From: Candidatus Saccharimonadota bacterium
GTDB lineage: Bacteria; Patescibacteriota; Gracilibacteria; UBA4473
Assembly (NCBI GenBank): GCA_030429505.1
Contig: JAUIFI010000001.1
Coordinates: 810,001-842,000 of the forward strand
Direction: 5' to 3'
DNA: 32,000 bases
Shown: positions 10,401 to 14,991 of the stretch, piece after piece
Numbering within the stretch: position 1 is the first letter of the stretch
How the letters are laid out: each line of letters starts with the position of its first letter
Program-made: the position numbers and the translations under genes
Notes under the pieces: model-generated
What the model was told of the DNA's origin: nothing
The model's input: only the letters and a program-made list of their open reading frames with translations
The model's database searches: none

Positions 10401-13400
10401 CTACGGACACCCTACCAAAATCTATGATCAGACCAAACAGCTCTACACCTGTCATCAATTTTCCAACGATGAAGATACCTGGCGAATTGGTTTTTTGACA
10501 CAAAGTAAAATCACCACCAACGGCAGTTGTGATTTTTCATCATGGGACAGTGGACAGGACTGGAGTTGGAGCAAAAAAACATTTGATACCAGTGGGGCAT
10601 CACCACGCATGAATCTGCTGAGCGAGTCTGAATGGGATGATGAAAATAACGACTGGTTGACGACCAGTTTCGCGTATCAGGAAGGCAGCAATACCTACGG
10701 GAATGTATCGAGTATTACTTCGCCTCTGGGAACAACGACCATTGTCTACGGGAGCGACCATATTTTCCCGCACAGCGAAACTACTCCGGCTGATGCGCAA
10801 GGCACGAGTCTCACTACCACCTATACCTACGACAACCGTTTCGGAAATAAAACGTCGGAAACTGACTCCAATGGTCATACCACGATAAGCTGCTTCGACG
10901 ATTTTGGACGACAAACCATGACCCAAGGTCCTTTGCCGGATAATCCTGTCACCTCCACCAAAGACACCAATTGTCTCACCGGAAAAAAAGATGTGATCAT
11001 GCTTTCGACCACTGACTATGTCAATGACAGCACTGGTACGTACATCGAAACTCGTCAAAGAATATCATGGGATGATAGCAATACTGCCAACTGGCGCTGG
11101 AGTCGTTCGTATCTGGACAGTTTATCCCGTCAGTACAAAACCGTATCGATGGGACCTAGCGCCACTCAAAATGTCATCACCGAAAAAGAATACGATAACC
11201 AGGGTTTTGTCGAACAGGGATCAACGCCATATTTTTGTAACGGTTTTGATTTCTCTGACTGTTCTAGTGCCGAACGCTATTACACCTCCATCGATTACGA
11301 TCTCTACAAACGCGAACTCAAAAGCACTTATCCGGACGGCACTATCACAACCAATGCCTATACCGGTAGCGCTTCCGGTCAGATGACAACTATTACAAAA
11401 GCGGTGGGTACTAGTGACGAACGAAAAGAAATTTTGCACTACGATACTTTGGGAAATCTTGCCTTACAGGAATTTTTTGATGATCAGGGCAATGCTCTTC
11501 AGACCAGTCATACCTATGACAAACTGCAACGCCAGAAAACCATCACCGATCCCAGTACTCCTGCCGCTCCAGGGGGCGTAACCGAAAGTTTTACCTACAA
11601 CTCTCTGGGACTCAAAACCCAGTTGCAGGAAACGGCGGTCATCGGAGGAAAAAGTCAGGCTACCGGTGTCGGTACAATCTCCTATGAGCATAACGATCAA
11701 GGGCTTCAAAGCACCCAGACCAATGGTAAGGGAGAGAAAACAAGTCTGATGTATGATGCCCTCGGACGAACGACCACGAAAACATTTAAAAATAGTAGCG
11801 GCACGACGACCCGAACCGTTCAGTACACGTACGATACCAGCACCTACACTGACGCCAATCCCAAAGGACGACTCACCAAAGTCGTCGTCTATCCGGGCAC
11901 CACCAGCACAACCCCCGAATCACAATACGACTTTCTCTACGACAATTACGGAAACACCAAGCAAGTCGTTCTCACCATGGACGGACAGACCTACACGTGG
12001 AAAACAGCATACCATCCGGACGGACAGGAAAGCCAGCTCACCTATCCCGACCAATCCGTACTGGAACGAACCTACTATCCATACGGCAACCTAGAATCTC
12101 TCAACCTTGCCAATTTTGACAGTGGTTCTCTCAGCCCATCGCTCAATTACGCAACCTACGAAAACTACAACGCACAGAATGCTGTCGGACAGATTACCTA
12201 TCCCTACGATCCGAGCGCAAATTGTCAGGGCGATGATTGCGCCCTTATGGCGACCTATACCTACACTCCTCAGACCGGTTTTCTGGCAACCCAAAAGATT
12301 CAAGACAAAGGACGCGGCACAACCATAGCTGACAAGAGTTATAGCTGGAATCAGCACAGTGATATTCTGGGTATCACGGACAACAATACTTTATCAAGAA
12401 ACGGAAAAAGCGCTTTTGATTATACACAAAACCTCACCTACGACTCACTAGGACGACTCACCAAAGCCGTCGGTATCTATGGTACGAAAGAATACGGATA
12501 TGACGCATCAGGGAATCTGGTTTGCAAGGGAGCTACCACCGCCTATTCCCCTTCCGGAAGCTTGCTCTGTACCGGAGGTACGACATACACCTACCAGGGA
12601 CACCAGCTTATGACAGGATCGGGAGCTAATACCGTGGGAATTACCTATGATGACAGTGGCAGCATGTATGTCAAAACACTGAATGGAAAAAAATCTGCCT
12701 ACACCTACCAAAACGATATGCTTCAGCAGACTCAGATCAGTTCAGGTGTTACGGCCAGTGTGTCAGAAACGTACCTCTATGACTATGTCGGCAAACGTCT
12801 CAAAAAAGACAATCAAACGACAAATGCTACAACATGGTACGTCATGCCGAACTATGAAATAACAACAGACAGTAATGGCACTACCCATACCAAATACATT
12901 CCCGGACCATCAGGAACAGTTGCAACCATTACGACTGACAATTCAACGGTAAACCTCTTACCACCTCCAGCCACGAGCAGTATCGCTGGTCTATGGCAGA
13001 AAACCAAAGACAATCTGACCGACCAATGGCAGGAACACATACAATCACTGCTGGCGCAAAGTTTATTCATCGCTCTTTACACGTTGCTCTTGGGAGGAGC
13101 TTTGTGGCTCATGTTCTTGATTATCAGAGGAGCTAACACACAAAGTTTGTTGGGAAAAATGAGACGAGGGCTTATTGAAACCCTGCACCGCAGACAATGG
13201 CTGTCTCATGGAACTGCCCGAAAGCTGGCTCGTCAGCATACCACTGACATTGCTCGACGATCACCGTGGATGAAGTGGGTGTCGCTTGTCTTAATCATGG
13301 CAACGCTGACCGGATGTTCCAATCCAGCTGGCTTACAAAGCAGTATTCTCCAATTATCCAAGACAGAAACGACCTCAGGAACCTACCCTGCAAGCGCCCA

Positions 13401-14991: not shown

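Follow-up and report, generated by a model that had tools for sequence, protein, structure and literature searches.

A Conserved Module with a Predicted Hairpin and Internal Signal-Peptidase Site Between the Shell and Core of Sec-Exported SpvB-Type RHS Toxins

Described RHS Cocoons and the Window Protein

In the Tc toxins, the TcB-TcC proteins (YenB/YenC2, TcdB2-TccC3) combine an SpvB domain, an FG-GAP propeller, a YD-repeat shell, and an RHS core with an autoprotease motif, and the resulting cocoon, which consists of two polypeptides, encapsulates a C-terminal toxin. The same parts are encoded in a 32,000-nucleotide stretch of DNA (the window) from a Candidatus Saccharimonadota bacterium that GTDB places in the Gracilibacteria (UBA4473; GenBank assembly GCA_030429505.1, contig JAUIFI010000001.1, positions 810,001 to 842,000 of the forward strand). 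The open reading frame (ORF) at 7462-14991 (+) specifies a protein of 2509 amino acids (aa) with, in order, a Sec signal, SpvB, FG-GAP, RHS shell, RHS core, pretoxin HINT (PT-HINT), and HNH domains, so that everything expected of an SpvB-type RHS polymorphic toxin is present: SpvB with FG-GAP, a YD shell, the RHS core motifs, and a C-terminal toxin. The subject of this study is the segment between shell and core (aa 1827-1980), which, as judged from sequence comparison, is probably one copy of a biogenesis module of Sec-exported, "fused TcB-TcC-like" SpvB-FG-GAP-RHS polymorphic toxins.

A Foldseek search with an AlphaFold2 model gave YenC2, TcdB2-TccC3, and Tse15 as the best matches (E of about 1e-22 to 1e-20; best structural matches 4igl_B and 4o9x), and teneurins were also close. 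Unlike TcB-TcC, however, the window protein comes from a single gene with an N-terminal Sec signal. The Tc cocoon is split mid-shell by separate genes, whereas the split predicted here lies just before the core and would be made by a signal peptidase; the solved BC proteins have no counterpart of the module. No TcA-like family was found among 10 large neighbouring ORFs of the window or at the loci L002 and L003, with 32 kb of the source genome covered, and since there is no TcA the window system is not a Tc complex.

[quoted passage not shown] They are RHS cocoons with hydrophobic helices, cut into several chains that stay together; their transmembrane (TM) helices lie at the N-terminus and are bound by chaperones in the cytoplasm, and the target membrane is the proposed site of their action, while export is by the T6SS and cleavage is autoproteolytic. 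In the window protein, by contrast, the helices precede the core and end in a signal-peptidase motif. A Pfam scan of this protein found no PAAR or VgrG domain, and the N-terminus is a Sec signal followed by SpvB.

The nearest mechanistic analogy would be with the Bradyrhizobium FbcH cytochrome b/c1 precursor and flavivirus polyproteins, in which signal peptidase cuts at internal signal sequences. Although unrelated to the window protein, these have a comparable series of stop-transfer helix, cytoplasmic loop, and internal signal, from which two membrane-associated products arise. We know of no version of this polyprotein arrangement that uses signal peptidase II (SPase II), and of none in a toxin. 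Classical lipoprotein signals (Lgt/LspA/Lnt) share with the window segment a basic n-region, a 10-aa h-region, the sequence L-T-G-C, and a small polar residue at +2, but the window signal begins 1936 residues into the protein, after a predicted stop-transfer helix.

Toxins directed to the surface or membrane by Sec and SPase II have been described in bacterial teneurin-like proteins (TLPs; PMC13018210) and in myxobacterial SitA (PMC5562445); in both, unlike here, the lipoprotein signal is N-terminal. As presented in PMC13018210, TLPs also have a YD shell that encapsulates the toxin, but carry TIP, NHL, and FN-plug domains instead of SpvB and FG-GAP. None of these three was found in the Pfam scan of the window protein, which is thus not a TLP, and the passages of the TLP paper that concern transmembrane, lipoprotein, and signal-peptide terms make no mention of an internal hairpin. 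The passages of Zhang et al. 2012 (PMC3482391) that mention lipoboxes place them solely at N-termini and in an immunity protein. Full-text searches of open-access papers and preprints, beyond which an earlier account is possible, returned no description of an internal TM segment, signal peptide, or lipobox in RHS proteins, and the module is apparently undescribed. A preliminary description of this DNA, made from its letters without database searches, had allowed that the insertion might prove common and already annotated. Common it is, but no annotation or characterisation of it was found in the searchable sources.

The Module and Its Conservation

The module comprises the following features, numbered by position in the window. 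A slash within a sequence marks a predicted cleavage site.

12940-13401, forward strand: whole module from shell to core, aa 1827-1980, 154 residues; aligns with the equivalent Leptospira and metagenome segments
12982-13050, forward strand: helix ahead of TM1, aa 1841-1863, after the family-wide S-x-x-G-L motif (here SSIAGLW); part of an AlphaFold2 helix at aa 1841-1889
13051-13125, forward strand: TM1, predicted stop-transfer helix LAQSLFIALYTLLLGGALWLMFLII, aa 1864-1888, 25 aa; hydrophobic core of 26 aa
13126-13269, forward strand: basic loop, predicted cytoplasmic, aa 1889-1936, 48 aa; 11 K/R versus 2 D/E
13270-13317, forward strand: predicted internal lipoprotein-type signal MKWVSLVLIMATLTGC, aa 1937-1952; predicted LspA cut G1951/C1952, followed by S
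13318-13401, forward strand: linker from Cys1952 to the core, aa 1953-1980; AlphaFold2 pLDDT (predicted local distance difference test) below 50 up to aa 1971

The peptides quoted in the preliminary description that were looked up sit at the positions claimed for them. The shell ends with KYIPGPSGTVATITTD (aa 1811-1826, nt 12892-12939) and the core starts with FFQHDHIKSVQIITDNTGKV from aa 1981 (nt 13402). An AlphaFold2 model of aa 1450-2095, built from a 121-row alignment (mean pLDDT 83), gives high confidence to the shell strands as far as aa 1826 and to the core from aa 1980 on; between them are helices at aa 1841-1889 and aa 1896-1913 and a low-confidence stretch at aa 1914-1971. Because of these helices and the low confidence, aa 1827-1980 is not YD-repeat shell, as had been supposed from its appearance. 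The Kyte-Doolittle 19-residue mean, used for all hydropathy values, peaks at 2.0 in the N-terminal signal, at 2.35 in the aa 1860-1893 region (maximum at aa 1870-1888, in agreement with the hydrophobic helix first proposed for aa 1864-1888), and at 2.3 in a Gly/Ala-rich region after the core. The excess of basic over acidic residues in the loop was counted correctly before, although its length is 48 aa and not 47; it contains SLLGKMRRGLIETL, which fits the family motif S..G[RK].R......L.

The second segment has the anatomy of a lipoprotein (SPase II) signal: a basic n-region, (RRSPW)MK; an h-region, WVSLVLIMAT, with a 10-aa hydrophobic core; and a lipobox, L-T-G-C, of the form [LVI][ASTVI][GAS]C. 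The basic n-region is predicted to come from residues upstream in the same frame. A regular expression modelled on the PROSITE pattern PS51257 matches only once in the whole 2509-aa protein, at Cys1952. In classical lipoproteins the Cys falls within about 35 N-terminal residues, while here it is residue 1952 of 2509. Pfam LPAM_1 is sub-threshold on the signal (E=0.35), and apart from it the module is without a Pfam family even at E<=1; from NCBIfam there is only a faint match to LvhB7 (E=0.008), confined to the signal region. A sequence search of the PDB gave matches confined to the core (aa 1972-2095), leaving the module without a solved counterpart.

In the first protein search, the same layout was found between the last shell strand and the core in Leptospira RHS proteins (...YKAFYFLLLLAVIYLVYPYFL-KENLLLQNLGWKGGATP-ALILSLFVVTSLPGC/GVLPG) and in the metagenome protein P0007 (...ALLWALLTTAVIMAFAVYSL-(55-aa basic loop)-RRRRLLRGPATILAITMLTMTMQC/GSSNGG); P0001, the best-scoring match of that search, is without the module. 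In the window protein, the Leptospira proteins, and P0007, the module sits before a core start of the form L.PG.NG.G.P..G..YFH.DHLGS. A profile of four sequences (A2), which covers the last strand, the module, and the core start, was searched against 1.84 billion cluster representatives (50% identity) and gave 589 matches at E<=1e-3, with the window protein at the top. Among the best 150 of these 589, a recognisable core is present in 128 and the module occupies the homologous place in about 115. In 93 members a hydrophobic 12-mer is followed at once by a Cys, which lies 8-130 aa upstream of the core, and about 7 more were recognised by eye; some 12-15 of the best 150 have a second hydrophobic segment without Cys. 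The remaining matches of the best 150 are N-terminally truncated fragments or genuinely module-less proteins (P0211, P0257, P0252). A profile of the module from 40 sequences (A4), the alignment of which was too loose, gave no match at E<=1e-3, and a contig scan with aa 1809-2095 gave no more than three matches, all of them distant and to the core (Chloroflexi, Gemmatimonadetes, and Bacteroidetes metagenome-assembled genomes, MAGs).

Carriers of the module include Leptospira interrogans, L. alstonii, L. barantonii, and L. licerasiae, Leptospiraceae MAGs, Polyangiaceae, a "Deltaproteobacteria" MAG, a cyanobacterial MAG, and Zooshikella ganghwensis. An N-terminal hydrophobic signal, which the window protein was correctly said to possess, is found in 58 of 65 full-length members (at least 1900 aa), the other seven mostly resembling truncated gene calls, and SpvB was detected in 57 of the 65 by single-sequence search. 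At the P0007, P0143, and P0166 loci the architecture is the same as that of the window protein. Judged by these alignments, the module is a conserved unit of about 130-150 aa of a large multi-phylum subfamily of Sec-exported SpvB-FG-GAP-RHS proteins, and the notion of an isolated insertion does not hold, since the homologues show it not to be lineage-specific.

The window protein falls within the module family as defined; across the module it can be aligned with P0007 and with the long-loop members, which align with each other over its entire length. Ahead of TM1 the long-loop members have (Y/F)D..S..G(L) and a helix ending in HP; S..G[RK].R......L...G follows TM1, and RRHP immediately precedes the second segment. 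In the window copy, a divergent member of this group, the corresponding sequences are SSIAGLW..., SLLGKMRRGLIETL, and ARRSPW-MKWVSLVLIMATLTGC. The motifs S..G[RK].R......L...G and RRHP fall in the predicted cytoplasmic loop in the window protein and its long-loop relatives; their conservation hints that the loop has an interaction partner or a role in regulation within the producer, and the conserved basic loop might link firing or release to the producer interior. Leptospira-type members have the motif CX6C..Y[WY]KNR about 40-60 aa upstream of TM1 (in P0002, aa 262-277, FCKDIAGDCGDYWKNR), a Cys pair that fits an oxidising, exported side. Besides this pre-TM1 CX6C motif, short-loop members have a conserved G[DE].PPW.L...TPS[VI] after the lipobox Cys.

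Predicted Internal Cleavage and Competing Explanations

The explanation favoured here, with moderate confidence, is that the stop-transfer helix and the internal signal peptide together form an out-in-out hairpin at which a signal peptidase splits the shell from the core-toxin chain. Sec export of the shell, of about 1800 aa, would start from the N-terminal signal and be halted by TM1 (aa 1864-1888), and the basic loop (aa 1889-1936) would be kept in the cytoplasm, as the charge bias of the whole family suggests. The segment at aa 1937-1952 would then act as an internal signal peptide and restart export with the core plug and toxin, consistent with its n-, h-, and c-region anatomy and with the homologues, and signal peptidase would cut at its outer end. 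Lgt-modified prolipoproteins are the usual substrates of LspA. In the window protein, lipidation of Cys1952 by Lgt would precede an LspA cut at G1951/C1952, while in relatives without the Cys signal peptidase I (SPase I) would cut at an AxA site. One product would be a shell that the hairpin of TM1, loop, and signal remnant keeps in the producer's cytoplasmic membrane; the other would be the core-toxin chain with a lipidated N-terminus, and the two chains together would make up the cocoon. By comparison with published Tc BC structures, the plug end would lie at the membrane and the beta-propeller end away from it. The known RHS autoproteolysis, at DPSGH, together with the PT-HINT domain would next carry out further processing of the HNH toxin.

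Several observations point to an internal signal peptide with a cleavage site. The lipobox is the first. In the 93 members with the Cys, position -3 is L or F in 56, position -2 is T, A, or S in 53, position -1 is G, S, or A in 69, and position +2 is G or S in 55. The PS51257-type expression matches 54 of 107 proteins within 122 aa upstream of the core; elsewhere in those proteins it matches 13 times in 98,682 residues (0.016 per 122 aa), and the enrichment is about 30-fold. In the Cys-less members, a hydrophobic core of 9-13 aa is followed by a c-region in which Pro or Gly stands at -4 to -6 and by a small-x-small site which, by eye, ends two residues ahead of the L.PG.NG core motif. As with the N-terminal site, these SPase I sites were assigned by eye: AWA/A (P0166), ASA/A (P0209), AEA/S (P0226), AHA/A (P0243), VHA/D (P0256), ARA/D (P0264), VYA/A (P0232), TFA/A (P0230, Zooshikella), and AEA/L (P0249). 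With an SPase II or an SPase I motif at one homologous position, it is cleavage that looks to be the conserved property.

The second is the orphan cassette P0214 (locus L007), which starts with its own start codon and a lipoprotein signal, MNSYRFICCIFFLVFANC/LPQALTGKKAPPFWLL, whose homologues are the internal segments of P0228 and P0200, both of them full-length proteins. The third is charge. Family-wide, the loops contain 446 K+R versus 132 D+E (net positive in 73 of 83), and the 15 aa after the lipobox Cys contain 64 K+R versus 160 D+E, which supports the out-in-out topology that had been predicted from the positive-inside rule. In addition, the second segment of the window protein has a hydrophobic core of 10 aa, which is too little for a stable TM helix, against 26 aa for TM1. 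The association of the module with N-terminal Sec signals and SpvB points the same way.

Several points weigh against this explanation. Position -1 of the lipobox is non-canonical in about 17 of the 93 members (Q in 10, N in 7). An Ala beside the L.PG motif is common in the lipobox-type members too, so that part of the AxA signal may be the core motif's own. The 15 aa before TM1 are also net basic across the family (182 K+R versus 92 D+E), and the positive-inside contrast is therefore weaker across TM1 than across the second segment. Over the family as a whole, the hydrophobic cores of the two segments differ little in length (medians of 16 aa for TM1 and 14 aa for the second segment; paired Wilcoxon p=0.009). 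The hydrophobic Gly/Ala-rich region at aa 2090-2230 could itself hinder Sec export, which the model does not account for, and neither does it account for the route by which a cocoon tied to the cytoplasmic membrane reaches its target, especially in diderm hosts.

The strongest competitor, though unlikely, is that both segments remain as membrane spans, an uncleaved two-helix hairpin that tethers a single-chain cocoon, with the Cys lipidated but uncut or conserved for another reason. The retention of TM1 and the basic loop in nearly all members would agree with such a tether, as would the similar median lengths of the two segments and the possible origin of part of the AxA pattern in the core motif. 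It would leave unexplained, however, why a near-invariant Cys in a lipobox context lies exactly at the end of the second segment and why this Cys is swapped for c-regions with Pro or Gly plus AxA; nor would it account for the N-terminal lipoprotein signal that the orphan cassette makes of the homologous segment, or for a second core of only 10 aa in the window protein. The tether envisaged in the preliminary description thus stands as regards the hairpin, but an uncleaved tether is less favoured than internal cleavage at the lipobox, which had been offered there as an alternative and is the best fit to the AxA sites of the Cys-less members and the signal of the orphan cassette.

It is still less probable that the helices are cargo in or on the cocoon and enter the target membrane to aid toxin translocation, by analogy with prePAAR proteins. 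Hydrophobic translocation segments are frequent in polymorphic toxins, RHS ones included, and another may be present here at aa 2090-2230; moreover, the AlphaFold2 placement of the module is not confident. Against this, the module has the three parts of a signal peptide, ends in a lipobox or AxA, and places an acidic stretch after its positive loop. In the sample examined it is confined to proteins whose N-terminus is a Sec signal, and since it lies upstream of the aspartyl-protease site it would not accompany the released toxin.

An internal translation start at M1937 (nt 13270), which would produce a separate lipoprotein of core and toxin independent of the shell, is very improbable. The Met of the window protein does stand exactly where the textbook lipoprotein signal begins, and stand-alone cassettes of signal, core, and toxin exist, as in P0214, but neither this Met nor any other start codon is conserved in the homologues: Leptospira has ...GATPALILSLFVVTSLPGC, P0007 has ...RRRRLLRGPATILAITMLTMTMQC, and the long-loop members have RRHP-[LFV]. 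There is also no Shine-Dalgarno-like motif within 20 nt upstream, although this is weak evidence because the true start at 7462 is also without one. A chance hydrophobic stretch, an assembly artefact, or a fusion artefact of two genes is refuted by the conservation of the module in more than 100 clusters of several phyla, with an identical 2509-aa protein on record from NCBI and Logan, a continuous frame, and a module GC content (48.9%) close to that of the gene (49.7%). Recent insertion of the module as DNA was likewise rejected, its GC content matching that of the gene and the module being ancient and widespread.

Remaining Features, Neighbouring Genes, and Significance

The other features of the window protein are listed here in the same numbering.

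7462-7569, forward strand: N-terminal Sec-type signal peptide, aa 1-36, ...NSAYA/AS; hydropathy peak at aa 4-28, AYA/A site read by eye
7624-8184, forward strand: SpvB/TcaC N-terminal domain, aa 55-241; Pfam PF03534, E=7e-13
8569-9621, forward strand: FG-GAP/VCBS repeats, presumed beta-propeller, about aa 370-720, limits approximate; Pfam PF13517 (E=7e-23) and PF01839
9799-12939, forward strand: RHS/YD-repeat shell, about aa 780-1826, start approximate; last strand HTKYIPGPSGTVATITTD; AlphaFold2 strands with high pLDDT at aa 1450-1826
13402-13728, forward strand: RHS repeat-associated core, or plug, aa 1981-2089; NCBIfam TIGR03696 (E=1e-22, aa 2006-2089) and matches to RHS cores in the PDB
13729-14151, forward strand: Gly/Ala-rich hydrophobic pre-toxin region, aa 2090-2230; hydropathy peaks at aa 2086-2114 and aa 2130-2149
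14197-14556, forward strand: pretoxin HINT domain, aa 2246-2365; Pfam PF07591, E=8e-19
14800-14928, forward strand: HNH endonuclease toxin domain, aa 2447-2489; Pfam PF01844, E=2e-7

The YD repeats of the window protein are very divergent: Pfam RHS_repeat (PF05593) stays above E 0.01 over the 2509 aa, yet AlphaFold2 and Foldseek clearly show the YD shell. The core contains RYYDP at aa 2044 and NPVDYTDPSGH at aa 2079-2089, which fits the pattern P....DP.G[LH] and ends in DPSGH (aa 2085-2089), the canonical aspartyl autoproteolysis motif. The Gly/Ala-rich region, which separates this motif from PT-HINT and has a counterpart in P0001, may help the released toxin to insert into a membrane or to be translocated.

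The frame of the RHS gene has no in-frame TGA and stops with TAG, and is therefore identical under genetic codes 11 and 25. All 16 large ORFs of the window stop with TAA or TAG and contain no TGA, while three small ORFs (4244-4816, 5671-6042, and 6501-7244, minus strand) and the upstream extension of a VWA gene (18520-20196, minus strand) read through TGA. This stop usage probably fits genetic code 25; no tRNA-Gly(UCA) is present within the 32 kb. The FtsH gene (27536-29674) is 73-75% identical to FtsH of Candidatus Gracilibacteria MAGs.

The GC content is 49.7% in the RHS gene, 41.9% in the window, and 29.2% in the downstream AAA_13 gene. That the RHS gene is more GC-rich than the window hints at horizontal acquisition, and it and its AAA_13 neighbour may each have been acquired in this way. 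The next gene after the RHS gene, at 15077-17326, encodes this AAA_13 ATPase of 749 aa, and a DUF4265 protein is encoded at 17955-18431; no small immunity-like ORF was found directly after the HNH toxin gene (14992-18431). A stand-alone HNH endonuclease of 247 aa (6501-7244, minus strand) is divergent from the RHS gene. Further along are a VirD4/TraG-type coupling protein (22982-25471, forward strand) and a radical SAM plus GNAT protein (25579-27234, forward strand). Recurring neighbour genes (a TcA, a dedicated peptidase, a transporter) were sought at the loci L001-L003, and none recurs.

The orphan cassette lies in an array at 178-2882 of L007 (GCA_020440905.1). A small lipoprotein-like gene lies at 524-1156 and overlaps with the beginning of P0214, which occupies 1153-2604 and consists of its own lipoprotein signal, a linker, an RHS core, and a toxin, and which is translationally coupled to the preceding gene. 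It is followed at 2601-2882 by a lipoprotein-like gene of 93 aa, and the putative immunity proteins of this locus themselves look exported.

To our knowledge, it is not established how Sec-dependent SpvB-RHS toxins, which are without a TcA, T6SS, or two-partner secretion partner, leave the producer, where they are located, or how they are armed. A conserved internal signal-peptidase site would provide a concrete step in their biogenesis, with a predicted place at the outer face of the cytoplasmic membrane. If true, it would also be a bacterial, lipoprotein-type case of polyprotein processing at an internal signal sequence, of which we know very few bacterial examples. For annotation, the module of 130-150 aa could become a recognisable domain, and orphan signal-core-toxin cassettes could be interpreted as lipoproteins.

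Pathogenic Leptospira are among the members of the family. In L. interrogans Hardjo, MY479_RS19795, annotated as "RHS repeat-associated core domain," is strongly down-regulated in a host-chamber model (log2 -4.06), and the adjoining lipoprotein gene also decreases (log2 -3.18; PMC13066512). This shows that Leptospira genes annotated as RHS-core are expressed and regulated.

A more tentative suggestion is that, in Sec-exported toxins of the BC type, the internal split by signal peptidase I or II, a route of maturation not recognised before, turns the cocoon into a surface-mounted launcher, with the plug at the membrane and often lipidated and the gate facing outward. Bacteria of the candidate phyla radiation (CPR), to which the Gracilibacteria belong, are taken to have a single membrane. 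On that assumption the launcher of a Gracilibacteria episymbiont would stand on the cell surface and face the host bacterium, the two suggestions together being possible rather than probable. In such a CPR episymbiont, a surface-mounted nuclease cocoon could belong to the attack on the host bacterium.

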